Notes under the pieces: generated by a model
The model's input: the letters and a program-made list of their open reading frames with translations, nothing else
What the model was told of the DNA's origin: nothing
Databases searched by the model: none
Source of the DNA: Lingula anatina
Taxonomy: Eukaryota; Animalia; Brachiopoda
NCBI GenBank assembly: GCA_051362555.1
Contig: CM120644.1
Location: 15,956,534 to 16,020,533 of the forward strand
Direction: 5' to 3'
DNA: 64,000 bases
Part shown: positions 4,049 through 64,000 of the stretch, one piece after another
Position numbering within the stretch: the first letter of the stretch is position 1
How the letters are laid out: the number at the start of each line of letters is the position of its first letter
Position numbers and translations under genes: made by a program

Positions 4049-7000
4049 TTATATCCTGCTTTCTTCGTGGATCGTTTCCAGATTTCCAAACCCGGTAGAG
4101 GGCGCGTCTGCAGTATATGTTTGCACGTGCCGGTTAAGTGTGATGCTCATCGTTGAACTGCACGCGTCATTCAGCGGAGAAGACCGAGTTTTCTCGACGA
4201 GACCCGAACCCGGCACGCTCCCAGCATACCCGGATGTCACGGTCATGTCAACTGTCGACGAAAGGGAGAGGGATGGATTGAGCATGCGCATAGCGTCGAG
4301 AGGATTCAGAACGTAAATTGTTTCCACAGGGTCTGAGCGTTGGCTTTTTGACGATTTTTTATCGCTGAAGTTCCGCTTAGCAGAAGGCCGAGAGTTTGAA
4401 GAGATTGGATTGGCAGTAGTGCTATTGCCACCGATATCACTTTTATCGGTGATGGACGAGCAGGACGGCATTTCTTTGACCGCGTTCTTTAAGCTGGCGT
4501 TGAAAGTGGACGATTCTCCCTGCCCCAATTCCCCCGTTGGATCTCTACGGACAAAGTTGATCTGTAATATTCAAAAGTGAGAAAAAATAAATAATATGAA
4601 TGATTAAACATATGAGGAGTAAGAGACGATTGTCGTTTATATTAATTATTATTATTTTTAGTTTATTTTATTTCTTTTTTATTTCCAATAGGCGATCACG
4701 AACGTTAACGTGTAAAGTCGCACAGCGGGAAGGCAGAGGCGCATACGCTGGCCGACTCCTTTTCCGACTTTCACGAAAATGGCCAATCCATTCGATTTCG
4801 CACCATAAGTTAAGAAAAAATGGTGTCTGTGGGAATGTGGTCTATGTCATATGTTTAAGACTGGGTTCCCATATCTAGATCGCTATAACAGGATCGTTCC
4901 ATCTCCAAGGGGTTTCTCGCTAAATTGCTTGCAGCTTAAGCGGCTTAGATGTCTGGCACACCTACTGAAGCTGCTTAATGATAATTAATTATCCCCTGGC
5001 ACCTTCAATAGGCGTGACAGTCATTTAAGCCGTTTCAACTGAACGCAATTAATCGAGAAACCCCTTGGAGATGGATCGATCCACAACTAGTACGATAAGG
5101 TCTGGGAACGGTCCCTTACTTTACCTTGGGAACAAAAAGTAACCCCAGAGTCATGGCGGCCGAGGTTATGATGCTGATTGTGGAGAAAGCGAATGCGATG
5201 GATGGCCTCTCTGACATAATCATGCCGACGGCGGCGCCCACTCCGCACAAAACACAGGTGTTGTAGATACACATGCCTAGATACCTGTACAAGGATAAGA
5301 AGAGGCTGAATTAGGTTCAAAGAAGGCTAAAATACTCCCCCAGACGACGAAAGTCTAAGGAATTGATGCTGATTATACAAAAGCTTTATACCCTGCCTGA
5401 AATACCAGGAGCGCCTTCCCACTTTCTTGTAAACAATATGACGGATAAATGCAGCTAAGTTTTAGGTATTTGAACTTCCAACAGGAGAAAACATTTAACC
5501 TGAAGCCAAAAACAGTTATGTTGTACGTTTTTAATGTATCACGGACCATACAGTGCAAACGAGAAACTTTTGATTCTGGTCCTTCTATGGTAAACAAGAG
5601 AGGGGACAAGAATGATATAAATGCTTTAGTCTGTGTTGTATGCAGCAGGTGGCTGGACGTTGACAGACATTAATGTACATTTTGCGTTGTCAGTAGTGTC
5701 ATGAAGGTTTATTTCTTTTAATCACATTATTTTATACCTTCAATTTATATAATACGGTCAGCTTCGGAGAGTAAACCACTCTTTATTTTAGTTTTAGACC
5801 GAATCCGAAGCATGAATCTGAAGCGCACAACATGAAAGTTTTAAGAAACTACTGCCTTTAATTCTAGAGTTTTTCAACGCAGTATCACTTACTTAGAATC
5901 ATTCAACTCGGGAACGTAGACTTTTCTTGTCTCGAAGGCGAGGAAACATCCCAGTAGCAGCAACAGCACCTTCTCCGCGAACAACCCTCCTATCCAATAG
6001 GTCATCAGTTCCGATACACAGAACTCGTGTCTAACTACTAGACGTTCTTCCTCGTTCTCCTAAAATAAATTAAATAATTAATTAGGCCGCATTAAGAACT
6101 GTGGATTAACTAGACAGAGGGCGAAATATGGCCGACCCACTTGAACTACTTCCCCAAGGGGAATCTATTCAGTGTCTGTTAGCGGAACGCGATATTTGAC
6201 CAGCGAAAAAGTTAGTCCACTGTTTTGAATGCGGCCTCAGAGAGCAAGGGCACAGCCTTGCGCATTTTATGCAACGCATACAAATTACCATTAGCAGTTT
6301 CCATAGAAACTCAAATAAAATCCATATGCCAAAAATAACCCAAATCAACCACTTTGTAAAGGGAGAAAAAAGACTAAAACTTCGCCTTCTTTACATTTCT
6401 GGTCGTAGGCCTAAACTCAAACCACATATTCATACCCCAGTTCATAAAATGAAACAAAGGGATACTAAGATCGCATTCACAACGAATTGAGCCAGGCTTT
6501 ACAAATCCTGGGGACTAAATATGGCGGACGTACATGAAAGAAAAACCGCCTAATCTTTTAATAGTCTCTCCGCCTCTCACACGCCTCCCCATGTGTCGTC
6601 CCAATGGAGCCGAGATTTAATGACTGTCCCCCGCAGGGACGACGTGTGGGGAGGCGTGTGAGAGGCGGAGAGACTATTAAAAGATTAGGCGGTTTTTCTT
6701 TCATGTACGTCCGCCATATTTAGTCCCCAGGATTTGTAAAGCCTGGCTCAAATCGTTGTGAATGCGGTCAAACATTGCTTTACACGGGCTGAGAAAACAT
6801 TACGTGTGGGTGTGTTTTTTATTTTGTGAATGCGATCTAAGAAACAAAACAGTGTATACTAAAAGTGAAACGAGACAAAAACGATTATTTTTTTCTTCTT
6901 AAAGTAAAATCTTCCCCATTAACTAATTTTAAATATTAAAATATTAGCCTCGCTTTGCCGTCCTAAATCTCTTAGTGTATACCCACCGTTGCAGTATCGT

Positions 7001-45142: not shown

Positions 45143-48100
45143 TTAAAGACGACTGTCTTCATTAACTGTTGGTACATATAACCCCGTACAACTACCAACC
45201 ACCACGTGGTTTTTGAAACAACGGTTTTCAACAGGGGAACACGTGGCGCCGCTAGACAGGAGAACTGTTGGCTCGTGATCTCCTCCATTCTCGTCAGAAG
45301 TGGAGAACGAACGGTTTATTATTCCAGTGATTTTATCTTTCTGAGACCTTTTGTGTGAATCGTTTTCCGTACCACCAAGTTCAGAAGAAAACCTAACCAT
45401 TGGCAATCCTGACAAAGTTGTGTTTAAACTCGCACTCTTTCTGTCACTTAGGTTATCTTCATTGCCCTGGCCACTGCTCGTAAAAACGGACGCTGCATTT
45501 GAAAGTTCTTTATGAACGTTTCTTAAACTGGCTTTGAAAGTAGACGTTATGCCATCAGGTTGCTTTACATTGGGGTGTTTTTTAACGTAACTAATCTGAA
45601 ATTGGACCAAAGGGTACAGATGGACATTACAAGTCGTAAAAAATTGATACTGTGAACTACCATACTAGGTTCTAAAACATGAAATAACGTTTAAAAATTC
45701 AAAAGGATGGGAACATGGCCCTAATCAAAACAGAGCATTTAACTTTACCTGCCTTTTTTAAAATATTGTGTGTGCCTGTTTTGTGGTGTATTTACCTACC
45801 TTAGGAACAAACAGCAATCCTAACGTCGTGGCAGCTGACGCTATGATGCAAAGAGATGAGAAAGCGAATGTGATAGCTGGCCTCTCCGACACAATCATGG
45901 CGACGGAGGCGCCAACTCCGCACAAAACACAGGTGTTGTAGATACACGTGCCTAGATACCTGGAACGTGGGGATATTTTAATTATACTTGAAATTGATTG
46001 AGAGATAGATAAACCAATAAAATTAATGACAATAGATTAACAATTTTTAAACAATAAATATCACAATATAAGTGTGTAAATAAGAAACCATACCGAATAC
46101 AGAATTTATTTCACGTCTTTTAGATGAATCAAATGAATTGGCAGATTGTGAAAACGTACTGATATATTTAAACAAGGACAAAAAAAAACAAAAAAAGAAT
46201 ATTCGTATGCGAACCATGCACGTTATATATATATATAATTTTTCAATTTGCCAAATACTTATTTGTACCTACTTGGAATCATTCAACTCCGGCACAAAGA
46301 CCCTTCTCGTCTCAAAGGCTAAAAAACACCCAAAAATCAGAAGCAATCCCTTCTCTGCCAGCAGACCGCCAATCCAATACGTCTTTAACTCCGACGTACA
46401 GGACTCGTGTTTCGTTATCAGGCGTTTCCCGTCCGTTTCCTGGAATAATTAAAGTTGTTATAACTTTTCTGAGTTCTAAAATATTTAATGTTTTTTTAAC
46501 CTCAATTTCTCTTTCTTATTCATCTATTTCTAATTTATGTTACTTGTATGTACATGTATTTATTAACCAATTTATTTATTTATGATTTCTTCTCGATAAC
46601 ATTATTTTGGATTCTCTATAAGCTCTTACGAAAATAAGCAGTTTCTCAATGCTGTAATCGGCATTTATTCCAAAAGTAAATTCACAGATGCCTTATAATC
46701 AATGGGTCGGTGCTGTACCAGGTACCTTGTTTAGGCAACACTACTGCAGTGTATTAAAGATAAATTACCATCAGAAGCGCCGTAAAAATAAGATATTTGA
46801 GAATACACACCGTAGGAACGTTTTGAGTGTTGAATGCTTTTTTGTTTATTTGTTTATTTTTTTTTTTTTTTGTCTAAAATAAATTTATTGACATTCAACC
46901 TGTCACTATTCAATAATAACCATAATGTTTATCTGCTAGCTGCTTTCACTGTATTCCAAAGTGACTCTGTGTGTGTCACCTAACCGGAAGTGGTACAAGC
47001 ACCATTGGGATACTGAAATGAGACTTCCGCTTCCTGTGGACATACCATGTCTGTCTGGATATGATACGTCAAGTATATCGGATCTATCACTGTCCACGTC
47101 GCCATTACGGCCACGTCCACCATTACTAAAAACGCCACCCCCAGCAACAGGTGTTTATCCTGTAGGGGCTAGGAAAATAAATTTGGCGAAAAATGCCATT
47201 TAACTGACAAAAATAAAGCAATTTTATCAATATTTCCAGCCAACACCACATGTACATACAGCATAAATTTCAAACCATTATATTCATTACGTAATGTAAA
47301 CATCACTTTGGACCTCAACTATATGACATGTTTTTATCAATTAAATTAAATGTTTCACAGCTTAAAAAATAATTGGATGCAAACTTAGTCAAAATGTGAC
47401 GACCGTTTAAAATATAACTGTAAAGGTTTAGCTTAAACCAAACGTGGTTGTATTAAATATAACATCGATTTACGTCCTTTTGCACTTTATATATATAAAT
47501 GTCAATGAGAAATGTGAATGAGCAAGGCCGCTTACAGCGCCTCAGCGGAGCTACTGGCTACATGTTGCCGTGTGATTCTAACTTGTATACTAGATGATGA
47601 ATTATATTGCACCCTATGACGAAACCGGGTCACAAACTGACCAAAGCTTGCTTTAAAATGTTGGTGTCGAAACGGTTTGAAGCACTGAACGCAAATGCAA
47701 TATAATAAAATAAAGGATATATGATACAATTATAAAACAATACCTTTCTCATTCTCCCATACTTGTTTCTAAAGATCACATAAACACGCCACGTCTTGGC
47801 AAACATGGCTCCGAACGCGAGGCTAAATGCTATGGACAGCAACCAGCCTGATGTCTGAAACAGAATGGTGCAATGATTTCAGTTTCAAGTTGCATTTATT
47901 CTTACTCCAGAGATCCTCAACTCTTTGTTTACAAACACAACAAACAAATGCCGCACCTCCATTGGAAAACCTCAATTGCTATCATTTCCCTTAAAACAGT
48001 TGTCTTGCTTCCGGAAAACAAGAAGATAACCCTCTTTGTTGTTTGATACAGCTATCTTTATTTCCAACAAAGGAATGTGGTAAAAAACTGAAATAAAATA

Positions 48101-51100
48101 AAGAAAACCTATGTCAAAATGCTGACGATGACATTTCTATTACTTATTGTGGCACTTACAGGCCACCGTACCTTACAAAACTAGCGTGAAACGTGCTGCA
48201 TTCTTGCATTGACAAGTTTTAACGTGAATACATAATAAAAGCAGTTTACAGATACTAAAAATGTTCTTTACACAACCACAATTATCAAAACTATATAAAA
48301 TGTGGAAAACTCACGGTGTGCGTGGCCTATCTTTAGAAAAAACTCTGAACAGTTCACTAGCGGCTGCTGATGAGCGAGCATGGAGCCTCGACATGAAAAA
48401 CTAGGTCAAATACGAAGGCCCGTAACAACACACTCCTCGCCTGATATCTGATTGATATCACTATTTAACTACTACAATAAAAGTCAACTATAAAATAGAA
48501 TGCACAACATATACTAAATTTAGTCCTAACTTAGCCACTAAATTTGTAGTGTTTTGCTATTAAATCCCTCCTACATGTTCGCAACTTTACCAACTGTCAA
48601 TCAAAAGAATAAGTTCACATATTGGTCTGACATATTTCACAGATTTTCCATCTTTCACTGTTCTGACCTCCACAGTTCTGACTTTACTGTCACATCCACT
48701 GGGAAAAACATCTTCTACTACTCCCATTGGCCAACTGCCTCGATGTAACTCACAGTCTCTGAGCAGCACAATGTCACCGATTTTCAAGTCTTTCTGCAAA
48801 GCTGTCCATTTCCCTCGCTTTTGTAATGACTGGAGATAACCATCTCTCCATCGCTTCCAGAATGTATTAGAAAGGATCTGCACATACTTCCATTGTGACT
48901 GGTATATTTCTCTCATATCTGTTGATGTGGTTGGGGTAGGTAATGGCTCCTTCTTCTGTGTAAGCAACATTGCTGGCGTGATGATTTCTGGGTCCTCTGG
49001 ATCATAGGAAATGGGAGCCACAGGTCGAGAATTAATGACAGCACTAACTTCACACATAAAGGTAACTAGAACTTCATGAGTAAGCTTTTGGGTATGGCTG
49101 GTTAAAAACATAGCATCGAGTATTCTTCTGGCGAGACCAATAAGACGTTCCCAGGCTCCACCCATGTGTGATGCATGCGGGGGATTGAACTTCCACACAA
49201 TTCCCATGTCATGAAGGCTTTCTTGCACTGGACCATTTTCAACAAAGATACCTGTGGCTTTAATCTGATCCAGAGCACCTATGAAATTTGTGCCACGATC
49301 CGATCTGATAATTTTCACTGGTCCACGGATGGCTACGAAACGTCTAAGTGCATTGATGAAGGACGAAGAACTCATTTCTTCTATAACTTCTATGTGCACT
49401 GCCCTGGTAACTAAACAACCAAAAATCAGGGCCCACCTTTTACTTTCAGCCTGACCACCTCTTGTTCTACGCGTGACCACAGGCCATGGACCGAAAACAT
49501 CAATTCCAACCGACGTGAAAGGAGGTCCTGGGGTTACTCTATCCTCAGGTAGATCAGCCATGCGTTGGTTCAAGAACTTGCCTCGCAATTTACGACATAT
49601 TACGCACTTGTACAAGATTGAAGAAACTAGTCTTTTTGCTCCAATTATCCAAAATCCCTTGGAGCGAAGTGCAGACTCTGTCACATGTCTTCCTTGGTGA
49701 TGAGAAATTGAATGGTAGTGATTTACAAGTAAGTTTGCTATGTGAGATTTCTTCGGGATAATAATAGGATGCTTTTGACCTTTCTCCAAAGGAGCATTGC
49801 TGAGGCGTCCTCCAACACGCAGAATGTGTTGGTCATCTAGTACTGGTGATAGTGTTGTCAATTTGCTGTCTGCAGGTACACTGGCTTTCTTTTGCACCAT
49901 GCTAATTTCTTCTCTGAAGGCATCTTCCTGTGCTTTCTTTATTAGGAATATCTCCGTAGCTTCGGTATCACTAGGGTCTTTAGGAGACATTTGCTTCTTT
50001 TCCTTCCAGGCTCTGCAAAACCTCTTCAAGAGAGAAATTGCCCTGACAAGAGATTTCCATGTTGAAAACTTTTCAAACCTAGCAGCAATGCTTCTTAACA
50101 ATACTGTAGCCTTCACATTGATTGTTGGACGTATTTCACAATCTGCATCTTCGTCAACTAGGTCAAAGTTACAGTTTTCACCAACTGTTGCTGTGACAAC
50201 ATCTTTCAAGAAATCTGGCCCTGTAATCCACTTACTACTTGAAAAATCCTGAACTGGGGTATTGCATCTTGTGCCGCAATCGGCTGGGTTTTTCTCTGAG
50301 GGGATATACTGCCACTGAGACGCCTTGGACCGTTTCAATATTGTAGCTACACGGTTGCTGACATATGTGTAGAACCGTCTGGTGCGGTTATAGAGATAAC
50401 CGAGAACGACTCTACTATCTGTGCAATACTTGAATGTTTCCATCGGAAGGTCAAGGTGTTCGGAGATTGTATCTGCAAGCTCTGTTGCTAAGACAGCTGC
50501 ACAAAGTTCTAAACGTGGTATGGTCACACCACCTGGTGGTGATAGTTTGGACTTTCCCATGATAAAACCTACTTCTGTGGAGGTATCACGACGAGCTTTC
50601 AAGTAGGCAACTGCTGATATGGCACGTTCGGAGGCATCTGAGAATACCCATACCTCCAGGGAATCTGCTAAACTGAAATCCACTGCAGTAATCATCCTTG
50701 GAACACAGAATTCCCTCAAGGAGAAAAGTGAACTTTTCCAAGATTCCCACTGGTGATAGAGATGTTCTGGCAAAGGGTCATCCCATCCAACAGCTTCGAC
50801 ATGCATCTCTCTTGCTAGCATTTTCCCGGTAACTGTCACTGGAGATAGGAAGCCAAGAGGATCAAAAATACTGTTGATGGTTGATAGAATCCCACGTTTG
50901 GTAAATGGTCTTTCAGGAATGAAAAGGCTGAAACCAAAACAATCCTTATCCATATTCCATGAAATTCCAAGAGATGCTTGAGTAGGAAGCTCTTCTGTAA
51001 ATAGGTCAAGATTCATGAGTGTTTTCTCTCGGTCTTCTGTTGGGAAGGCATTCACCAAGTCTGGAGAATTGGAAGCGATTTTATGTAACCAGATTCTTCC

Positions 51101-54100
51101 ATTTTCCCACAAAACCTTCTGGGTTCTTTTCACTAGGTCTGTGAGGCTTTCCGAATCTGATCCTGTGATGAGAGCATCATCTACATAAAAGTTCTTGGTG
51201 ACAAAATGTTTCACATCTTCATCAGCATGTTCCACTGCTTTCCTAAGGCCGTAAGTGGCTACGGCAGGTGACGGAGTGTTCCCAAATACATGGACTCTCA
51301 TTCGGTATTCAATTATCTCTTTCTTCGGGTCATTATCTCTGTACCAGAAGAATCGTAGGAAGTCTCTGTGTTCTTCATTTACTAGAAAGGAGTAAAACAT
51401 CTGTTGGATATCTGCTGTGACTGCGATTCTGTCTTTCCGAAATCTTAAAAGTACTCCCAATAAACTGTTGGTTTGGTTTGGTCCAGTGAGTAGATTCTCA
51501 TTCAAAGAGTACCCTTCATACTTGACAGAAGAATCAAAAACTCCTCTCACTTTATCAGGTTTTCTGGGATGGTATATTGCAAAAAGAGGAAGGTACCAGA
51601 CTTCCTTTCCAGGTGGAAGCTCGGGGGCTACTTCCGCAGCTTGAGTATCGAATATGTTCTCCATGAATTCCACCATATGCTGAAGTTTACGTTCGTCTTT
51701 CTTTAATGCTGCGTCAAATGATTTTGCCCTGCCAAAGACTTGTGACCTGTTATTCGGCATTCTCTGTCTTGGGTGTTTGAATGGGAGAGGAGCCATCCAC
51801 TGATCCTTGTCTTTTTGCATAGATTCATTCATAATGTCAAGAAATTCCCTGTCCTCTGTGGACAAACTAACGCGGTCGTCTTGGGCTGTAATTTTGAAAA
51901 CATCTGAACCAATCTGATTTTCTTCTTTCAAGAGTATTGCACTGGGACATGGTAGAAAGTTTGTAGGGCGCCCGTCGTTCATGATGTTGGTCTTGAAGGC
52001 GGATATCCTCTTTGGCTGATGTACTTTTCCAAGGCAGACTTCACCAATGATTACCCATCCGAGTGGTAGTTTCTGGCCAAATGGATGATTCTTAGAACCC
52101 AGGAGTTGATCTTGAACATGATGTGCTTCAATTAGATCTCTGCCTATGAGCAGACCGATTTCAGCTTTGGGGTTCAAGGGAGGAATCTTCTCTGATAAAG
52201 AACTCAGGTGTTCATACTGCATAGCCACGTCCGGAGTAGGGATTTCAGAACGATTCTTAGGAATGTCACACTCAATTATTTCGGGAAGCACAAAGGACTG
52301 AGTACCATCATAAGACTCAACAATGAGGTCCACAGCATGCCTTGCTGATATGTGAGTGGTCCCTGAGCATGAAGACAATGAATAACTACGCAACCCTCCT
52401 GAGATCTGCAGCTGGTCAAAAAGAGCTGGGGTTCCTAAGGACTTGTTACTCTGATCATCATGGACAGCATAAACTGCAACAGCCTCTTCTGGTCGGCCTT
52501 TGGGAAATACCCTCACTAAAACATTTTTAGCACATGACCGTCCAACGAATCCTTCTTCACACAATGCAGTACATTTAGTAATCACCTCCCCGCCATTCGC
52601 TCTTGGGGCAATACCTTCATCTGTGGAAACGTTGTTTCTTCTCTCAGCATTGTTTCTTCTTTCTGGAATACCACTCGGGGCACCTTTTACTGGGAAATTG
52701 GTTTGGGAAGGAAATGTTTTCTCTCCACAAGATGACTGAATGTGGCCCTTACGACAGCAACCAAAACAATAGCCATATTTCCTCATAATACACTTCTGCT
52801 CATTCGGGCTTTTCTGACCAAACACTCTGCATTCCCTGAGTTCATGGTTTGTGCCATGCAGTGGGCACTCTTCCTTTTGAGCGACATCAGTCTTCCTGCT
52901 TGTTATCATGTTTCTTTCCTTTGGTCTGTCTTTAATAGAAGTATTGTGTGTAAAGTCATACTGAAAACAAGGATTGTTCTTTGTTTGGCTCAGCTTCTTA
53001 ATGAATTTGACGAATTCAGGGAATGGAGGGTAATGGACTCTGTTGTTCTCTTTGTATTTCACGGCATGAGATGTCCACTTGTTCTGTTGGTCCTGAGTTA
53101 ACTTGGCTACTATTGGGTTTATTCCTACCGCTGAGTCAAGATAGGACAGGGTCAACCCACACAATTCATCTTCCTTAAAGGCCTGAATCTCTGACAGGAG
53201 ATCTAAAAGTTCATACAGTTTCAGTGTATCCTTTGACGTCAGTTTAGGAAACATGTCTATTTTCTTCCTCAGGACAGATTCTATTAACTCTGGGCTACCG
53301 TATCTTTCCTCCAATCTTTCCCAAATCTCTTTGACTGCTTTCTGAGGTTGACTTGGATTTGCTGTTTTAATACTAATTGCATGCTTTCTGCTGGTGGGAC
53401 CCAGCCATCTGATGAGTAAGTCTACCTCTTCTGATGCTGACAGTGCTAAATCTTTCTTCATACTAACAAAACTTTCTTTCCATGAAGCATATGTCTCTGG
53501 GGTTTCTTGAAATGTAGTTAATCGAGTGAGGAGCAACTCCTTCTTCAGTAGATAATTCATTATCCCTGTCATTTCTCTGCCATTTTCAGTAGCTGGTGTG
53601 AATTCAGAGGCATTCGGATTCAACTGTTCTGGTAAGACTCTTGGTAATTGTGGAACTTCAGTACTGGTGACTGCTGATGGAACGGGTTCTGGTCTACGCG
53701 CAATTTCTAAAAACTGAGGTGCCGTCACTGCTGACACACTTTGTTCTTGTCTTGTATCTGATTGTTGGGTGTGTATGGTTGCTGCTGAGTGTCTCTCTAC
53801 GAAGGCTGCTGTGCGATTTACAGCACTTTCTATGGGTAGACCGGGGGATTCTGGTCTTCTTCTATGGGGAAACAACTGTATTTCTTCGTCTTCGAGTACC
53901 TGCGCTTCGGCCTCTGCTGCAGCGTGAGATTTCCTTTCCATTAACAGCTCAAGCTCTGCTTCTAATTCAGCTTTTTGTCTGTTTCTTTCTGCAGCTCTGA
54001 TCACGTTTTGTTCCTCCAAAATTGCCTGTCGTTTCTTCAGTTCTACTTCTTGCTCTGCAAACTTGAGCCGTGCACGTGCCGCTTCTGCTTTCGCTCTCTT

Positions 54101-54771
54101 TCTGATTGTGGATGAGGTGCCTGTTGATGAAACAGATCTAGATCTAGCTGATGTAGCTAATTCTGCACCCAAGTCTGGAACTGTGCTTGATGGCTCTTCG
54201 GCGCCTGTTGACATCTTGAAATGGAACTAGAGGTGAATTGACTTCTAAATGGGCTGGACCTTTTTTACTGTCTTGCTTCCGGAAAACAAGAAGATAACCC
54301 TCTTTGTTGTTTGATACAGCTATCTTTATTTCCAACAAAGGAATGTGGTAAAAAACTGAAATAAAATAAAGAAAACCTATGTCAAAATGCTGACGATGAC
54401 ATTTCTATTACTTATTGTGGCACTTACAGGCCACCGTACCTTACAAAACTAGCGTGAAACGTGCTGCATTCTTGCATTGACAAGTTTTAACGTGAATACA
54501 TAATAAAAGCAGTTTACAGATACTAAAAATGTTCTTTACACAACCACAATTATCAAAACTATATAAAATGTGGAAAACTCACGGTGTGCGTGGCCTATCT
54601 TTAGAAAAAACTCTGAACAGTTCACTAGCGGCTGCTGATGAGCGAGCATGGAGCCTCGACATGAAAAACTAGGTCAAATACGAAGGCCCGTAACAACACA
54701 ACAGTGTACAACCTGGCGTGGGTTAAATGCATTGTCACAGTGGTAGCATTATCACTAATAACCGTTTTTTC

Positions 54772-54820
<49 letters not shown>

Positions 54821-57800
54821 ACGGCAATAATGAACACGATCATCATCTTCATCATAAAATAAACTTTAGGGCCTTCGATCATGATAAATGAGACAAGAAA
54901 AATATACTGCCTTTTTCTTTCAAAATCTAATTAAAAACAGTAAACTAACTCACCATGCACATCGCTGGCATGACATCTGCAGGAACAAGACGGGTGTCCA
55001 GGGCAACAAACGGCACGCAGCTAAATGCCACAACACACCCGGTCGCTATGACGTTGTTAAGATTTGGTGATGACAGTTTGATGTGGCTACAAAAAATGAA
55101 ATAAAAAAAAAACAATACAGCTACCTCAATCAAGATTAAGATTAAATCTTTGCATAAATGTAAATTACAACTTACGCTGAATTTTTTTAATTTGAAACAT
55201 TTTAAAGGGCAAGTATTAGCCTGTTTTTCAGCCTAGAATATTGCTTTTGCCTGTTTAAGAAACGCTAATAATTTTGCACATTTATTAAAAATCTTCTAAT
55301 TCCCTTAAGTGTAGAAATCGATTTTAAAAGCGCACGCTTTTAGAGCGATTTTGCTGACCTACATAAAAACACCAATCTTGGCTGCTACAGTACTTTACAG
55401 GTGGTTCTGGGGTTGACCTATATAATACACGTGACCCACTTTCTCGTTCAGAAACAGTCATGTTGCAATGAAGCTGTTCTCCATGAAAATCTGAATATTC
55501 AATCATGGTTAAAAAGTGTGATGCCCATAACTGCTCAAACTCAAAGCATACTGGGCACAGCTTGCATAGGTTTCCGCAAAAGCACAAATTACCTACATAA
55601 AAACACCAAACTTGGCTGCTACTTTACAGGTGGTTCTAGGGTTGACCTATATAATACATGTGACCCACTTTCTCGTTCATGTTGCACTGAAGCTGTTCTC
55701 CATGAAAAGCGTGAATATTTAAATATGGTTAAAAAGTGTGTTGCCCAGAACTGCTCAAACTCAAAGCATACTGGGCACAGCTTGCATAGGTTTCCGCAAA
55801 AGCACAATCTACGTCGCCAATGGATCAGGTTTGTGCAAACAAAAAGGAAGAATTTCACTGCACCCTCGCCATCGTCTCAGGCCGTTCTTTGTGGGGCACA
55901 TTTCGCGGCAGACTGTTTCGAATCCCCACTTATGAACACGATGGGGTTCAAGACAAAAAGGTCTTTGAAAGAGGATGCTGTGCCTACTCTTCATGCCAGT
56001 GTGAAGCGACCAAACACCGGAGAAAGTGAACGGACCGAGCAGTTGATAAAACGCCGCGGCAGGGTCGTTAAGAAGCTTGAAGTATCCAGAGTGAGTAATT
56101 ATTATTCAGTTTATTATATAATGCCTACCAACGCTATATAAAGCTAATTACAATTCACTTAGATAGATAATAGTTAAGGAAAATTTGTGACTGAGTGCGG
56201 ATGATTTCCGATCGAGTTTATACTTCACATCTACTCACAGCAGTAATAGGGGGGAGGGGGCGACGGGGGGGGGGGGGGTGGAGGGGCATGTGTGCACATG
56301 TAGTTGTGTATTTTGACGTAATGGTAATTGCTTTCAGTCAATCTTATCAGACACATTACGTATTTAGTTACTCGATGAGTTTGAGACAGGAGGAGCCTCT
56401 CAAAACGAAATGCCGTCTTCAAAAGAACCAGTAGCCATCACTACACAGGCCCAGCCATCCCCACCATCCCCAGTATGTGAGCTGCCTGAAGCAAAATCCA
56501 CGCATTCCGTTACATTATCGTAGCAAAGGTAAATTGTTCTGTATTCATTTGCTACTAGTTATTAATTTAGTAATTATGATGTGGAGGTGCCGTGGGGATT
56601 ACAGCTAATTATCCCACTAATTGGAGATATAATAATAAACACAAAATAGGCAGAGATATTTTTTAAATTTTTGGCAGCCTTCTCCTTCCTTCAAATTTCT
56701 TATCAGGTTTAACTTTCTTTTTTTTTTTTTTTTTTTTGTTGTCACCTAACTATTCATGAATTTGATGGTGTTAGGGAATTTCTACCCTCTACCATGCCCA
56801 CAGATAGATTTTTCACTAGATATTCACTAACAAGTCTCTGCCTAATTCATAACACATTTCTTAAGTGCACATATTTAATCCTGTGGTTCTGGTAGAAGAT
56901 AGGGAATATCTTGCCTACAGGGAATTTAATCCAGGTAGTCTTCCTAAAGCTTCATGTGATGTTCACTTCCAGGCCTTTGATATCATAGATGATTACTAAC
57001 GAGATCTTTTAATCTTGTGTGTTTCCTGCTTTTTACAACATATACAACCAGTTAAGGGTGTAAGGGAAATACATACTATTTGTAATTCACAGCAGCAAGT
57101 TCAAAAGTATGAATATATTAAAGGGATATAATAACTGTTCGTTTTGGACAAAAAATTAATTTTTCTGGAGTAAACAACAATTTTACCACACTTATCAATG
57201 GTTGATGAATCCATTTTTACATTCAAAGTAAGTCCCTGTTTTTTTTTTGTTTTTTTTTCTAAAAAGCGTGTTTTTTGTTGTAATCTCTCAAGAGATTATA
57301 ACAGAGCATAGCCATCTATGGAGGTCACGTGGTCTAAAGCTCAGATATCAGAATAATAGCTACAACTGCCGTTTTTGTGGTACAACAGAATGTATTGTAT
57401 TTCTATGAGTTGTTCACAATGATTTATTGTGAAATATAGATCGCATACGAAGAGTTATTATCCCTTTTATTTTATTACTCACATTTAATGCTCAATTTAA
57501 TTTTGATTAATTTTTCAAATGTAATGCAGTTTGGGGAAATTGAGTGGGTCTTGAATAATAAATTTGGTACACTACCGGTAGATTGAAATAGAATGTATTT
57601 TTTTTTACTACTAAATTTTAATTTAGTTTTTTATTGCTCACAAATTAATATTCACTCCCTTTAGGGACCATGACGAGAAGAGACAACATGAAAGATGTGG
57701 GAACTCAATATGACTGTGTAGAATCCCCGTTGCATGACCAAAAACCACAAATATTAATATGAACAAGGTCCAAACTTGACGCCCATTAGTTATATTGTCA

Positions 57801-60800
57801 TTAAACGCCACCTACCGATGATTCCTGAAGACGATGTTAAAAACTAGCAGACACAGCCCGAGTAAAATCCCAAGCCCGGCGAGACCAGTGATGACAGCTG
57901 CCAGAGCGCCGTCGATGTACGACATTCTGTTTACGACAGGGGTGTGGTCAAGAGGTACATGTCCACCTAGAAGACGAGAGGACAATCGATATTTAATTAT
58001 TTATTTATTTATTTATTATTATTTTTTTTAATAAATTTGTTACTTTTTAGAATCCAATGTCGATGTCCATCAAGTGACCTTACTGAATGCGGTTACTATA
58101 ATAAGCAAACAATAAGCAAATAAAAAACACATTAGATTGCGTGTATCCATTGCGATATGTTTCCCAAAGTATCATGTAAGTCATAATAATAGTTTCTTCA
58201 AACAACAGTTAGGCCGCGTTCAGATAAACCCAATCATATAAGCTGGGTCGATCCAAATCGATCGATTCTCGCTTCAGTGTGATCAGCTCAATCCAGTGAA
58301 AGAGCTTCCGAGATCCGAGCGCACACTATAATATAGTTAGTTACCCCATTGCTGGTCAACAATTACACTGATTACATTGATTGCGCTTAAGCAAAAATCC
58401 TCGCAGAGTCGGATCAATGCAGCTATTTCGATGGGTTTATCTGAACGCTCCCTTAGACAGTTTCATATCAAGCTGTACTCTTAGTTGAGAGATTACACAA
58501 CAACCCCCGCACACAGGGCCGTAGCCTCCGGGGGGGCAGGGGGGGCAGCTGCCCCCCCCCTGGAATTTGGAATTTTACACACCACACCCTCCCCCCTCGG
58601 TAGCTTCGCCCCCTCGTGTCGGCTTACTGCCCCCCCTGGCATTTTGCTCAGGCTACGGCCCTGGCACATGAAGCGGTCAATAAATTATCTAAACAGAACG
58701 AAGCGAACTTGTGAAAGATAATAAATTTGCCTACAGCATAATTAAAACATTTCACATTAAGAGATATTTGTACGTACCAGGCCACTTTAACAGAGATTCA
58801 TCAATGCTGATTTGCCCTGTGATCTCGTTGTGCACCCCAACAGCCACTTGGACAGAGTCTGAAATTTACCACAGCGCAGCGGTTACCATGGATACGAAGT
58901 ACGGTTGCTATGACAACATAAACCGAATTAATGACAACGGCGTAACTGATTACGTGCATTCACTTATCGTTATCTTCGATTTTCGCATTAAGGCGTTCAT
59001 ATAAGCCAGTTGATTGATGTGGCTTCCAAATCTGCGTGACGAATGAGTCTGGATTCATGCTGCCTATGACAGAGAGACGGTGGGGAAAGAGAGAGAGGCG
59101 GGAAACAAATATATTATTATGGGTTCAGACACTTCCGGGGAACATTTACCTTGGACTTGGGTGATTTCCAACTGCCAAGGCCTGCTACCGTTTCCATAAA
59201 ATGACATTGGACCCTAAAATAATATTTGTTTAAGAAGTTCGATGACGACGCACAAATATGTCATTCCATTATTTATTTACTAGTCATTTATTTATTTACT
59301 AGTCAAATTTAAATATGATTTTTTCTCTTTCTTTGGGTCACACGTTTGCTTCAGCGAGAGATTGGATTTTAATAATGTAAAATCGATTCAAATCAAAGAA
59401 ATGTGACCAGAAAAATCAAACAGGCTCCAAAGAAAATAACGTTTACCATACTTTAAAAACGCTTGTTTCTACCCAATATGTATTTTCCTTACCGTCATCC
59501 CTGTAAAATTTGTTTTCTTCAATTCCTCCATGAGAATACTCAACAGGTGACTGTCTTCGTAGGTGAAGTCATCGAGCCGCTTTGGCCTGACAACTGTTTC
59601 TCCGTCAACAACCTCCGTGACGACCTGAGTGGACATGAAAGAATATATATATATATTTTTTTTTCTTAAGTTCCATCGTGATACATGTATATATGAAGTG
59701 CAGCAAATGCGTTAAGTCCTTTTCGTATCAAGAGGTCCAGATTTCTGTACCGCACCAGTTTGTCTGATTCTGACATGAACTTCTGTCGGGGGTCGAGGAA
59801 CGGGAAAGTATGGGGGTTATTTCCTTCAACAAACCCCAAAACAACAATCAAAAGCAGTTTGGTTAACTGGTCGTGTCGAGCGCGAGTTTTTGTGAATCTC
59901 TTAGGTAAAAGCCATGCTTAGATGGCACCGTTCTAAAATAAAATAAACTAAAATACGTAATTTTAGGGCCCTTCAACGGACTTCTAACGCCTCGCCAAGG
60001 GGCGGGAAGGGGAGGCGTCGCCTGCCGTTCCTAAAAAAGGACACCCTTCGAACAATCCTGGATCAGCCCCTGCGTTCGATGTTTAAAATGCGTTGAAAAT
60101 ATACGGGCAGGGTAGGGAGACAAGAACAAAGCACCCTCCTGTCGGTTTCAGCAAGCTCTGCTGACAATATGAATGAAGAAGAGAAAATCAGAAGGGTTGT
60201 TCAGAACCAAATTAATCGGCGGACTTACAGATCCACGGATCAAACATGGCGCACACTTGACAATGGATTCCCTCCTCCCCTTGCGCCGTCCCTGCAGGAA
60301 CAGAGCAATTGAATCTCGACATGGTTTCAAGTGGATATGTAAGTCAGCGGATCAAATGGTTCTGAATAGGCCCTTAGATACTAGTCGATCTGAAGTGCTC
60401 GTTTTTTTTTAATTGCTGTCAGCAGCTTCCGACAGTGATGAGCAATCTCTATCAAACTGTTTGTGTGTTCATGACGGATCAAATATCTTGAAACACATCT
60501 AGCTGGCTATAAAATCACTTAAGGGAACACTTCGCGCCATTGGTAATTTTTGCATTGACAATTTAAATATTTATGACCATTAAAACACTGGCAACGCCTA
60601 GCAACCGGCGTCATAAGTATGGCGCCAAAAGGAGAACAATGACATTCAAATGAGAAAGCGACCTCATAAAGTGACAAGAACTTGCAAATAAGCAGTTAAG
60701 AGTACAACTTTTGAACATTTCAATTTTTCGACTGTCAGTTATTTTCGCAGGCGGTTTTCATTCTTACGAACAATTGCATTCAGCAAGTAAAACAAGTTCG

Positions 60801-62415
60801 AATCAATGGAAATGAATTAAAACTTACCTGTTTAGCTACTTCGGGAATAGCAGAGTTCAGGGCCAGTGCAGCTGCCCATATGGCGTCATAGCCAAAGGGG
60901 TGGTAATCGTTAAAACCATACTTTTCAAAACTGGGCCACTGTTTATAGCGTCTTTCATACTGATCGAACGACTGAAAATTAATTTTAAAAAAATACCTGT
61001 ACATGTACAAACAAGTACCGTATGAGAAATAACGTAAGATGGTTAAAACTTTAAAAAAAGAAAGCACTTCGTAGGCAATATATGAAAAAGGTGTCATTTA
61101 TGTAATACAAGTGCGACATAGTTGATCTTACCTAAATGATGGAAAGAGTACTAGAAAAGGGTATAATTTTACATGTACAATTCACCATAAATTTCAGAAA
61201 TTAGCTTCATTTGGGCTAGATTCACTATGAACAGGTTAAATATACAAATGCGCTGATGATTTACCAGCCCATTTATCGTCTCAAGACCATGAGTAAACTT
61301 CTCAAAGGTCAGAAGCTCCATTAAGGTCAGCGCGTGCTCGGTGGCGGCCTTGATCTCCGACGGGTCACAAGCCGTATCATTGACCGACATCCAGTCTTTA
61401 TTATACCAGCCGTAGTACAGCCACACCACTTTCCCGCCGCTCATGCCGAACCGATAAGCCTGTGGATTGCGACAGATGGCGCTAAATTTACAGCAAAAAC
61501 CCGTCCCAATAATTTCTCAGCTAATTGCGTTTACGTCTTTTACCATACTGCGTATCTTTACGACAGTCATTAGAATAAACTCGCTTGACCTTGGCCTAAT
61601 TTTAATCCTTCAATTTAACAGACCTTATCATAACCTTGACCTTACATGTACATTGACCTTTATATAGATTACATGTGTACCAGTACCTTGCAAAGAATTC
61701 TACGGAAGGTTTGCTCAGAGCCGTCGAAGATGATAATGCGGGCGTCACGATTCTACAAGAAAATATTATCAGCTTTAATAAAAGTGGTAGGCCTACATGT
61801 AAATATGAAATAAATATACCTAAATAATTGTAGTTGTGCTAGTACTGTTGACATATACAGCGAGAAAGCAGTCCCAAATGCGGACACAGACTTAAATGGT
61901 GTGATACGTTCCCACAGACGACACGTTAGAGAAGACGCCATTATGGCCCCATTCACAACGTTAGTTGATCCGCACAATTCCCTCGGGGAACGCATTGGTG
62001 TCTGTTTAAGGATTATGCAGCACGCTTTCAAGTGGGTCGGCCATAATTGATCCGCGGATGTGGTAAAGTCCGCGGATCAACTTGTTCTGAATGTGCCTCA
62101 TGTGTACTAACCTTGAGGTCCTGTATCTGTACATCTGACAATTCGTCTATATCGCCTACGGTATGGTAAGCCAAGCTCTCGATACCATTGTTTTCAAATA
62201 ACTTGTGAAGGATTGCCATATTCTGTTGACAAAAAAAAACACAATTATTTTTAATAAGCTTCAGAAAGGTTTTGGTTGAGTTTACCAAAACCGGTTTTTT
62301 TTTGGGGGGGGGATATGTCTTCTTTGCATATGTTTAAGAAACAAATGAAATTATTTCAACGTACTGCATGCACACGCCTGTATGGTATATACATGTAGTC
62401 TGGCTGTCTTTCTGG

Positions 62416-62494
<79 letters not shown>

Positions 62495-63150
62495 TACCTC
62501 TTGACATTCATATCCAATGGTGGCGACTCGTTTCCACCCATAGTGCTGTACAATGGCCAAATAAGCTTTTAGATAAGAACCCATGGTCGGAATGTTCCTC
62601 CAAAACGTACGATAGATGTCTCTCTTCGATAGCTTCAGACGTGCAGCACCATATGAGATCTGAAAACACCAAACTTGATTAAGAGAAGTTGTTTCCATAA
62701 ACGAAACAACAAATAGACAGCTTACTTAATATGTTAAATGTCACAGAACAATGGGGCAATTTTTTGTGGTGACAGAAGCCGGAGATCATGTTATCCAGCC
62801 CATCTAAGAAATCTGTTCTAAGAGCATAGAATAATTGCGGACCAACGAGTATGGTCGATATACTTGAAAGCTTACTTGGTAATCCCGGGAGGAATCCATT
62901 CAGTGTATATTAGGGGATTATTTGGCAAACGTTCAAGTAGGACGGCCATATTTGATCCGCGGATCTGTTAGTCAGCAGCTCAACTCGGATGTGAATGCGG
63001 CTTCGGACGTACCTGAATGAGATTGAAAAAGGGAGTCGTCTGAGCAGTGGCAACCGTGGATACACTGCACCCTCCACCTATCACCATTATCTTTTGGGGT
63101 GGACGTTGGATAGCTCTAACCAGAGCCGCGGCGGCAGCTCCATCATCACA
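45143..63150 (-). CDS. GABA-B-receptor-like class C GPCR, paralog C (exons 2-17; exon 1 lies beyond the window)
   Basis: Exons: 63013-63150, 62498-62659, 62112-62222, 61687-61752, 61265-61459, 60828-60971, 59493-59624, 59150-59213, 58778-58858, 57816-57966, 54954-55086, 47744-47854, 47046-47168, 46273-46439, 45800-45959, 45143-45595. Internal exon lengths are identical to A and B; introns and 3' flank align with paralog B. Confidence 0.92.
48001..48432 (-). repeat. 3' LTR of the BEL/Pao element (432 bp)
   Basis: Direct repeat of 54269-54700; preceded in element sense by a purine-rich tract. Confidence 0.96.
48433..48442 (-). promoter_or_regulatory. Polypurine tract of the BEL/Pao element
   Basis: AGGCGAGGAG immediately upstream of the 3' LTR TG in element sense. 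Confidence 0.75.
48587..54214 (-). CDS. BEL/Pao gag-pol polyprotein (1875 aa): Gag, Zn knuckle, aspartic protease, RT, RNase H, integrase
   Basis: Uninterrupted ORF. Motifs: CFGCCRKGHIQSSC knuckle; protease-position YAVHDDQS; RT ADIQQMF, VHVFGNTPSP, FYVDD; RNase H FSDAS, IPRLELCAA, TDS, NPAD; integrase HH-CC, GIDVFGP, SDRGTNF, GGAWERLI; C-terminal FWKRWRDGYL. Order PR-RT-RH-IN and the motifs are typical of BEL/Pao. Confidence 0.96.
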   Translation of the reverse strand: MSTGAEEPSSTVPDLGAELATSARSRSVSSTGTSSTIRKRAKAEAARARLKFAEQEVELKKRQAILEEQNVIRAAERNRQKAELEAELELLMERKSHAAAEAEAQVLEDEEIQLFPHRRRPESPGLPIESAVNRTAAFVERHSAATIHTQQSDTRQEQSVSAVTAPQFLEIARRPEPVPSAVTSTEVPQLPRVLPEQLNPNASEFTPATENGREMTGIMNYLLKKELLLTRLTTFQETPETYASWKESFVSMKKDLALSASEEVDLLIRWLGPTSRKHAISIKTANPSQPQKAVKEIWERLEERYGSPELIESVLRKKIDMFPKLTSKDTLKLYELLDLLSEIQAFKEDELCGLTLSYLDSAVGINPIVAKLTQDQQNKWTSHAVKYKENNRVHYPPFPEFVKFIKKLSQTKNNPCFQYDFTHNTSIKDRPKERNMITSRKTDVAQKEECPLHGTNHELRECRVFGQKSPNEQKCIMRKYGYCFGCCRKGHIQSSCGEKTFPSQTNFPVKGAPSGIPERRNNAERRNNVSTDEGIAPRANGGEVITKCTALCEEGFVGRSCAKNVLVRVFPKGRPEEAVAVYAVHDDQSNKSLGTPALFDQLQISGGLRSYSLSSCSGTTHISARHAVDLIVESYDGTQSFVLPEIIECDIPKNRSEIPTPDVAMQYEHLSSLSEKIPPLNPKAEIGLLIGRDLIEAHHVQDQLLGSKNHPFGQKLPLGWVIIGEVCLGKVHQPKRISAFKTNIMNDGRPTNFLPCPSAILLKEENQIGSDVFKITAQDDRVSLSTEDREFLDIMNESMQKDKDQWMAPLPFKHPRQRMPNNRSQVFGRAKSFDAALKKDERKLQHMVEFMENIFDTQAAEVAPELPPGKEVWYLPLFAIYHPRKPDKVRGVFDSSVKYEGYSLNENLLTGPNQTNSLLGVLLRFRKDRIAVTADIQQMFYSFLVNEEHRDFLRFFWYRDNDPKKEIIEYRMRVHVFGNTPSPAVATYGLRKAVEHADEDVKHFVTKNFYVDDALITGSDSESLTDLVKRTQKVLWENGRIWLHKIASNSPDLVNAFPTEDREKTLMNLDLFTEELPTQASLGISWNMDKDCFGFSLFIPERPFTKRGILSTINSIFDPLGFLSPVTVTGKMLAREMHVEAVGWDDPLPEHLYHQWESWKSSLFSLREFCVPRMITAVDFSLADSLEVWVFSDASERAISAVAYLKARRDTSTEVGFIMGKSKLSPPGGVTIPRLELCAAVLATELADTISEHLDLPMETFKYCTDSRVVLGYLYNRTRRFYTYVSNRVATILKRSKASQWQYIPSEKNPADCGTRCNTPVQDFSSSKWITGPDFLKDVVTATVGENCNFDLVDEDADCEIRPTINVKATVLLRSIAARFEKFSTWKSLVRAISLLKRFCRAWKEKKQMSPKDPSDTEATEIFLIKKAQEDAFREEISMVQKKASVPADSKLTTLSPVLDDQHILRVGGRLSNAPLEKGQKHPIIIPKKSHIANLLVNHYHSISHHQGRHVTESALRSKGFWIIGAKRLVSSILYKCVICRKLRGKFLNQRMADLPEDRVTPGPPFTSVGIDVFGPWPVVTRRTRGGQAESKRWALIFGCLVTRAVHIEVIEEMSSSSFINALRRFVAIRGPVKIIRSDRGTNFIGALDQIKATGIFVENGPVQESLHDMGIVWKFNPPHASHMGGAWERLIGLARRILDAMFLTSHTQKLTHEVLVTFMCEVSAVINSRPVAPISYDPEDPEIITPAMLLTQKKEPLPTPTTSTDMREIYQSQWKYVQILSNTFWKRWRDGYLQSLQKRGKWTALQKDLKIGDIVLLRDCELHRGSWPMGVVEDVFPSGCDSKVRTVEVRTVKDGKSVKYVRPICELILLIDSW
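54258..54268 (-). promoter_or_regulatory. Non-canonical primer-binding position (GTAAAAAAGGT) of the BEL/Pao element
   Basis: Directly follows the 5' LTR; lacks the TGG that pairs with tRNA CCA; complementary to LTR-internal sequence (see findings). Confidence 0.6.
54269..54700 (-). repeat. 5' LTR of the BEL/Pao element (432 bp)
   Basis: Element-sense TGTGTTG...GCAAGACA; direct repeat of 48001-48432; AATAAA about 60 nt before the LTR end. Confidence 0.96.
55725..56090 (+). pseudogene. THAP-domain exon, probably the first exon of a truncated DNA-transposon gene, antisense within intron 11 of paralog C
   Basis: MVKKCVAQNCSN..LHRFP..RRQWIRFV..VLCGAHF..CF..LKEDAVPTL is a complete C2CH THAP with AVPT box. 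It ends at the donor AGA|GTGAGT with no downstream exon visible. The region ~55298-56335 is absent from paralog B. Confidence 0.8.
57122..57465. mobile_element. Second, inverted copy of the TTAA MITE, in intron 11 of paralog C
   Basis: Reverse complement aligns with 20953-21288; absent at the homologous site of paralog B (~30975). Confidence 0.72.
58514..58663. mobile_element. 150-bp MITE with CAGGGCCGTAGCCT TIR and 5-bp TSD
   Basis: Perfect 14-bp TIR; GCACA duplicated; empty site in paralog B (~32035). Confidence 0.8.
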
Positions 63151-63164
63151 CTGAAATAAAGGTG

Positions 63165-63197
<33 letters not shown>

Positions 63198-64000
63198 AAA
63201 ATAGCCATCAAAAATAAATTAGTCACCAGTGGCCTTGTTGGCAGTCACCTTCTGGTGGAAACCCGTAGGACAAGTAAGTAAAACGTATAAACCAACCTAA
63301 ACCATTTATTCACAGATGTAAAGAATGCGTTTTAAAATAATAATCCATTAGCCATGAGGCGTATTCCCAATCAGGTGAACAAAAAGTCGGTTAAAGTTGC
63401 GTGAGTGCATTATTATCCTCAATTAATTTGTAAATGGATCCGGAGACAAACTCTACCGGGAGATGCGCCCTATGCTTTATCAATTAAGCACTGTTGACCG
63501 CAAAAAATGGATGAATGCTTTAAAAGTCAGCTCTTGTTGGTATGAGCAAAAAGACAGAACTACCTGTAACACACATTTTAAGAGACTTGGCTCGATTTTT
63601 CACATATTATAATTGGTAAATGGACCCCTCCCCCCCCCCCTTAAAAAAATAATAAATAAGCACGTCGCTTCATCGAACAGGGGGAAACTCTATTTCTTTG
63701 CCATCTATGCGCAATTTTGCGGAAAATACCATCGAATTGTCTTTGTCTATGCAGTGAGTAAACTTTCAGGGCAAATGCTAGCATGTTGACGCTGTCCTGC
63801 CCTGTACTAACTACCTGTACTAGCTAACCTTATCCCAAAGGGAATTGAGATCCTAAGGTGGCTAATTTGATAAACCAATTATCGTCACCAGTGGGATTTG
63901 AACAGTCACATCTATCAGCATGAAAACTGTCAAACATTGGCTTGCCGTCTCGTGGGAGGAGATAATTTGTTATGGGTCTTAATTATGTCGCCAGGGAAAC

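Follow-up and report, generated by a model that had tools for sequence, protein, structure and literature searches.

Results

A BEL/Pao retrotransposon within a class C GPCR gene

The window, by which we mean the whole 64-kb stretch of DNA that was analysed, carries a complete LTR retrotransposon of the BEL/Pao type on its minus strand (54700-48001), the strand to which all element features described below belong. The copy is young and intact. Its two 432-bp LTRs are identical (5′ LTR, 54269..54700, bounded by TG...CA; 3′ LTR, 48001..48432, with the same intron present), a 5-bp target-site duplication, ACTGT, flanks the element (54701..54705, second copy at 47996-48000), and a polypurine tract abuts the 3′ LTR (48433..48442). 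The single gag-pol ORF (48587..54226) is 1879 aa long from stop to stop, with its first Met at residue 5. It encodes, in this order, a Pao peptidase A17 domain (PF05380), rve (PF00665) and DUF5641 (PF18701), its reverse transcriptase (RT) motif is YVDD, and over residues 215-520 it matches an NCBI protein of Lingula anatina at 100% identity. By protein content, identical LTRs, polypurine tract and target-site duplication, the element belongs to BEL/Pao.

The retrotransposon lies within an intron of a class C GPCR gene, in the same sense as the gene (minus strand, span 45143-63207; exons include 47633-47878, 45761-46036 and 62354-62725), and the insertion is flanked on both sides by 7tm_3 and ANF_receptor matches. 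We take this host gene to be GABA-B-like from a motif that it carries. The strong splice sites of the LTR and its poly(A) signal could disturb the gene. A second class C GPCR gene seems to begin at about 41131. The same host intron region also holds a THAP-domain ORF on the plus strand (55344-56141; PF05485, E 4e-16), accompanied by short direct repeats at 55391-55812; this ORF is probably a DNA-transposon relic or a derived gene.

The LTR exon junction is complementary to the primer-binding site position

In element sense, the 5′ LTR is directly followed by GTAAAAAAGGTCCA. The primer-binding site (PBS) position, GTAAAAAAGGT, occupies 54258..54268 with zero spacer from the LTR. The initial annotation had pointed out that the TGG typical of a tRNA PBS is missing here, and we found none in the 30 nt after the LTR; an 18-nt tRNA-3′-end PBS of the ICTV type is absent by the same count.

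The LTR itself contains a 227-nt GT-AG intron (54356..54582) with the donor GTGAGT at 54582, a branch-like TTGAC (54385-54381), a pyrimidine tract and a CAG acceptor whose AG ends at 54356. Exon 1 (54583..54655, its start being placed from a related copy) ends in ACC, the 5′ part of the predicted primer, and the first 8 nt of exon 2 (TTTTTTAC, 54348..54355) form its 3′ part, so that the spliced junction reads ...ACC followed by UUUUUUAC. Removal of the intron had been proposed to create an 11/11 complement of 54268-54258 whose pairing starts at the base immediately following the LTR, with unspliced RNA pairing over 8 nt only. Both statements held, and every coordinate was correct on re-reading. 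Downstream of the acceptor, an AATAAA polyadenylation signal lies 25 nt away (54325..54330), and a U5 terminal hairpin that adjoins the PBS (54271..54291) is predicted by folding.

The LTR holds 37 GT and 29 AG dinucleotides, and the best PBS complement among all GT..AG pairs is the junction of the 227-nt intron. On a simple ad hoc score restricted to intron-side letters, the acceptor comes first among the 29 and the donor second among the 37. An 11-bp match at some GT..AG pair of this LTR was reached by 5 of 1000 shuffled PBSs and by 11 of 1000 random 27-mers from the window. Taken singly, the match in the window is therefore only moderately unlikely; it lies far beyond chance because of the RNA reads and the seven relatives described below.

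Two further donors lie within the intron, GTAAGT (54422..54427) and GTACGG (54439). Use of the former would remove 72 nt, and the pairing over 14 positions that had been claimed for the resulting junction could be reproduced by hand (12 Watson-Crick pairs, one G-U and one mismatch). No such joint is listed among the RNA reads, and we dropped this shorter intron as the main route.

RNA reads contain the predicted junction

We searched seven of nine raw-read RNA runs, picked by species label and each sampled at 6-30%, for the junction reads that the initial annotation had proposed to look for. The joint 54355/54583 was present in three of the seven runs (X7, X8 and X9, all from one study). The sole joint listed inside the LTR connects 54340 to 54583 with 18 letters between them; these letters are 54341-54355 plus a 3-nt insertion allele, and the joint thus equals the predicted junction. 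Reads spanning it numbered 5 in X9 and 1 in X7, and loose ends reading across it were found in X9 (7), X7 (16 and 5) and X8 (13). In X1, X2, X4 and X5, at the same 6-30% sampling, the junction was absent from the listed joints. Intron-containing reads occur too, and the junction reads stem from diverged copies, not from the window locus.

The same splice sites are also joined to other sequences. The donor is connected, in element sense and with the break at most 2 nt from the donor, to foreign sequence in stranded runs (46 reads of X2, 16 of X1 and 5 of X5), and the acceptor is connected to foreign upstream sequence in 6 reads of X9. Because both sites also join foreign sequence, they behave as real donor and acceptor. 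The foreign sequence attached to the donor has no match within the 64-kb window. A related LTR copy appears to be the promoter and first exon of a foreign transcript (54581-54655; X1, X2 and X5). In X2, depth over 54584-54671 was 46, 42 and 25, then 3, with the drop falling between 54628-54649 and 54650-54671, which suggests that transcription from the related copy starts about 60-70 nt before the donor, at ~54640-54655. An exon 1 of only 3 nt, beginning at a CA initiator and yielding a literal Tf1-like 5′ primer, was set aside, since the X2 reads reach ~60-70 nt past the donor.

A flank other than the PBS mostly follows the LTR end in X7 and X9 (19 and 20 reads), and the spliced reads may therefore derive from a 3′ or solo LTR; none of the reads in the RNA runs examined carried both the junction and the PBS. 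The runs consist of RNA only, and an intron-less genomic copy could be the source of the junction reads. The simplest origin of such a copy would in turn be a spliced RNA.

A survey of related elements

Relatives were collected from scans of bacterial genome bins and metagenomes that yielded animal-host contigs with BEL/Pao. These gave 36 distinct BEL/Pao-related loci, namely seven with a readable LTR and a non-TGG PBS, five of TGG type, five partial loci, and 19 without readable ends that were left out before counting. Among the partial loci, L016 retains the acceptor side (7/8) with the donor off the contig, L006 has a GT-starting PBS and a cut LTR, and L003, L030 and L045 each have an LTR with intron signals and no PBS of their own. 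Two LTR copies defined the LTR ends of the window element, L002, L004 and L007; on the single-LTR contigs of L008, L015, L029 and L031 these ends were placed by eye. The viral contigs scanned contained no relative, and neither a genus search around G003 (1 of 21 genomes) nor a family search around G002 (3 of 251) produced a new host-contaminated genome.

Bacterial genome bins with animal BEL/Pao copies (L001-L014, G001-G005 and G026-G030, with 13 matches in G004) point to host contamination or, for G029, where three BEL/Pao matches lie inside its single contig, possibly to a host-integrated copy. Five contigs of G004 (L039-L043) carry BEL/Pao-like RT-RH-IN stretches and have no LTRs; a promoter-like gap and another ORF follow these stretches. 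Together with L013 and L014 the five contigs make up a clade of their own, and they look like a different kind of element. In L008, an extra ORF-like stretch of ~700 nt (4200-4950) separates the PBS from gag.

Junction pairing is kept through compensatory changes

A junction helix is present in all eight clade elements with readable LTR and PBS (the window element and its seven relatives), and it is perfect in six of the seven relatives. The 11 bp of the window element, three from exon 1 and eight from exon 2, recur with the same 3 + 8 division in L002 and L004, whereas the exons contribute 5 + 6 pairs to the 11-bp helix of L008 and 6 + 5 to that of L029. L015 reaches 14 bp (7 + 7) and L031 15 bp (9 + 6), the latter beginning 3 nt past the LTR end. 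L007 pairs at 10 of 11 positions (6 + 5) with a mismatch at helix position 3. The helix thus spans exactly 11 positions in six of the eight elements, and it begins on the first base after the LTR in seven. The introns of the relatives, in which splicing is predicted only, measure 76-697 nt.

The PBS sequences differ among the relatives (e.g. GTGGAAAAGTT, GTCGAACAATT and GTAAAATATCT), and each matches its own LTR only: when PBSs were swapped between elements, the maximum was 9 bp and none of the 56 combinations reached 10. L007 scores 0 in the strict form of this test owing to its mismatch. Per-element nulls ranged from 0 to 22 of 1000. The donor that provides the pairing is the sole upstream GT with that extension in all eight elements (1 of 20-60), and by intron-side score it ranks first or second in seven, the exception being GTATAT in L008 (12 of 74). 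The acceptors rank 1, 1, 3, 6, 1, 1, 7 and 2 over the eight elements. Pairing at the acceptor in unspliced RNA amounts to 5-8 bp across elements.

The check for covariation that had been suggested earlier was thus positive on both sides of the junction. Among the seven elements whose helix has zero offset, positions 1, 2 and 5 do not change and the remaining eight of the 11 do, and pairing is intact in every cell except one; beyond that one mismatch, seven of the eight variable positions switch between different Watson-Crick pairs. The initial annotation had cautioned that the core of the window helix is a low-complexity U6/A6 run. L008, L007 and L004 answer this concern, as their helices are not U/A runs.

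A C-C mismatch closes the helix in six of the eight elements, at position 12 in the window element, L002, L004, L008 and L029 and at position 16 in L031; it may act as a recognition or stop signal. In six of the eight elements a poly(A) signal lies 22-38 nt past the acceptor, and in L031 it lies 67 nt past it; L002 has none.

The junction elements group apart from TGG-type relatives

The five TGG-type relatives have short LTRs (173-236 bp), and a scan of all of them found no perfect junction match of 3 + 3 or more. In an RT-RNase H tree of 32 rows, a branch with support 100/99 separates the junction elements from the five TGG rows. The junction side consists of the seven junction elements with RT, the partial ones and L045, the sister of L031; L031, which lacks the RT stretch, is outside the tree and L045 stands in for it. 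The tree is midpoint-rooted only and kin share labels, and the separation is accordingly to be read as clustering, not as independent origins.

Two details touch on tRNA-type sites. L004 has a TGG at +2. A stretch of 9 nt is common to the junction-type site of L007 (6170-6185) and the TGG-type PBS of L038 (4044-4062), the latter resembling a tRNA-Lys PBS; the shared stretch could be a trace of a switch away from tRNA priming, or chance.

Discussion

A probable primer assembled by splicing

We consider it probable that the spliced LTR junction serves as the minus-strand primer in place of a tRNA, in cis or in trans. The initial annotation had proposed a splice-dependent primer, and the junction reads together with compensatory pairing in the relatives support that reading. 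Action in cis is the form that we favour, by a modest degree. The primer is then probably a Tf1-like self-primer that is built by the spliceosome and cut after ...AC by RNase H.

In outline, Pol II would start inside the LTR, ~60-70 nt before the donor, and the spliceosome would take out the cap-proximal intron. The junction would then fold back in cis onto the PBS and thereby close an R-U5 loop predicted to contain several hairpins, and the RNase H of the element would cut just after ...AC (between 54348 and 54347, a site predicted from Tf1) to leave a 3′-OH on the first base after the LTR. Strong-stop DNA would cover only the 79 nt of exon-2 R and U5 before jumping to the 3′ R, and progeny would inherit the intron only from the unspliced 3′ copy. 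Fold prediction gives the helix in the window leader a probability of 0.99 when spliced and 0.10 when unspliced, and in the spliced form it closes three hairpins. Across the clade, the predicted cis helix exceeds 0.9 in four of the eight elements; the others give 0.39, 0.18, 0.01 and 0.00.

Two features of the alignment are what such a primer would be expected to leave behind. The 3′ end of a minus-strand primer has to lie on the base directly following the LTR, since it fixes the right end of the DNA, and an LTR-adjacent register is therefore expected. The new PBS arises when plus-strand synthesis copies the primer, and tight covariation between the two would follow if the junction is the primer. 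The intron persists in all eight elements, although a spliced 3′ copy would erase it. That one RNA must splice its 5′ copy of the intron yet keep its 3′ copy poses a sharp puzzle for this model.

Alternative explanations

Pairing could also take place in trans, with a short, spliced and polyadenylated LTR RNA from a 5′, 3′ or solo LTR annealing to the PBS of another genomic RNA before being cut. This route, whose likelihood is a part of that given above to a spliced-junction primer as a whole, would suit the poly(A) signal found shortly after the acceptor in six of the eight elements, the runs with junction reads in which the LTR end mostly enters a non-PBS flank, and the predicted failure of the cis fold in half of the elements. 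The window duplex is, however, short and AU-rich (-12.7 kcal/mol including outer pairs), and the spliced window leader is predicted to fold with the helix almost fully formed. Tf1, moreover, primes in cis (PMC7175516). We regard the trans route as a possible but rather unlikely variant. A helix that is real and yet structural or regulatory, acting in translation, export, packaging or 5′ poly(A) suppression while another RNA or a protein primes, seems more doubtful still. It is in keeping with the expression role that 5′ leader splicing often has, and priming by the spliced junction is a function that we infer. Against it, the helix starts on the first base after the LTR in seven of eight elements, and this constant end register is the constraint expected of a primer 3′ end; nor is any other primer site visible.

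That a host tRNA half, an internal tRNA segment or another small RNA primes, the LTR match being secondary, is improbable to a high degree. The TGG at +2 in L004 and the stretch that L007 has in common with L038 speak for it, but the eight PBSs differ widely while each matches its own LTR junction. Moreover, Pol III transcripts avoid U6 runs, and a complement of the window PBS needs one. ARAGORN found no tRNA within the 64-kb window. We give practically no credence to a chance match between a low-complexity U6/A6 run and the T-rich tract of an acceptor-like site. For the window alone, such a match has some plausibility, since some GT..AG pair gives 11 bp with 0.5-1% of the shuffled or random PBSs, yet the pairing is repeated in seven more elements, involves helices that are not U runs, and uses the best-scoring splice sites. 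The predicted joint is also the only one listed among the reads, and the swap matrix and the reads together refute a chance origin.

Implications

In a broader form of this reading, it is likely that a whole BEL/Pao clade of aquatic invertebrates has swapped tRNA priming for a primer put together by the host spliceosome out of two LTR exons. Reverse transcription would be licensed once the cap-proximal intron is spliced out, the intron would hide the primer in DNA and in the unspliced 3′ copy, and the 11-bp helix with its C-C mismatch may be an RNase H signal. If true, self-priming would have arisen a second time, independently, among LTR elements, and this would be the first example encountered in this work of a reverse-transcription primer made by splicing. 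It would correct the textbook view of Belpaoviridae as tRNA-primed, explain why PBS finders fail on these elements, and tie transposition to the host's control of splicing instead of to pools of tRNA or silencing by tRNA fragments. The junction complement would also offer a simple rule by which the PBS, the ends of the LTRs and their introns could be annotated in a widespread clade.

Comparison with known systems

The ICTV profile of Belpaoviridae describes an 18-nt PBS for tRNA-Arg or tRNA-Gly and priming by a host tRNA, with replication poorly understood (PMC8742986). The window element resembles the profile (genus Semotivirus) in its LTRs, polypurine tract, single gag-pol, Pao peptidase A17/RNase H, integrase, 5-bp target-site duplication and animal host (PMC8742986). 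The clade departs from it in its GT-starting PBS without tRNA signature and in its LTR intron, whereas the TGG-type BEL/Pao elements of our set fit the profile and fall outside the junction clade.

The initial annotation knew of no self-priming in BEL/Pao and of no primer made by splicing, and none appeared in the titles and abstract openings of the literature searched; subscription papers, supplements, Repbase and GyDB may record missing PBSs or LTR introns. By term look-up in the available text, PBS, tRNA and splice are unmentioned in the Sinbad paper (PMC554778), and primer, PBS, tRNA and intron in a BEL/Pao survey (PMC3118150). The portions available of PMC6934838, PMC3601003, PMC8220671, PMC7472051, PMC4558846 and PMC2678813 do not describe a splice-made primer.

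Other LTR elements share single traits with the clade. The PBS-less fungal GalEa Copia elements, biv-TRIM with its conserved hairpin site and Tcn2-5 likewise have no canonical PBS, and a priming route of unknown kind was proposed for them (PMC6934838, PMC7175516); in the text available on them, the candidate is an internal-region hairpin or nothing, and no LTR intron or junction complement is mentioned. The ta-TRIM solo LTRs of Echinococcus produce LTR-initiated RNAs that splice to foreign exons (PMC4558846), much as the LTR donor is joined to foreign sequence in X1, X2 and X5. In the accessible part of that account, ta-TRIM has a tRNA-Leu PBS and its splicing is unconnected with priming.

The closest parallel is with Tf1/Tf2 of Schizosaccharomyces pombe and with Tj1, another self-priming member of the Tf1/sushi group (PMC4600332). 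As far as the available excerpts describe them, these elements too lack a tRNA PBS and use ~11 nt of their own LTR RNA as its complement; in Tf1, 11 nt of LTR RNA form the complement of the PBS, and RNase H cuts between bases 11 and 12 (PMC7175516), and six of the eight helices reported here span 11 positions as well. The Tf1/sushi group is made up of Ty3/gypsy chromoviruses, however, whereas the proteins of the present elements are of Pao type and place them elsewhere by protein phylogeny. Unlike in Tf1, the complement is absent from DNA and unspliced RNA and is made by a spliceosomal intron, and the primer would lie ~60-70 nt inside the RNA, as judged from the related copy, instead of at its 5′ end, with cleavage taken by analogy. 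A splice-made primer is without precedent in the literature searched, and the system is Tf1-like in its working while not being a member of the Tf1 group.
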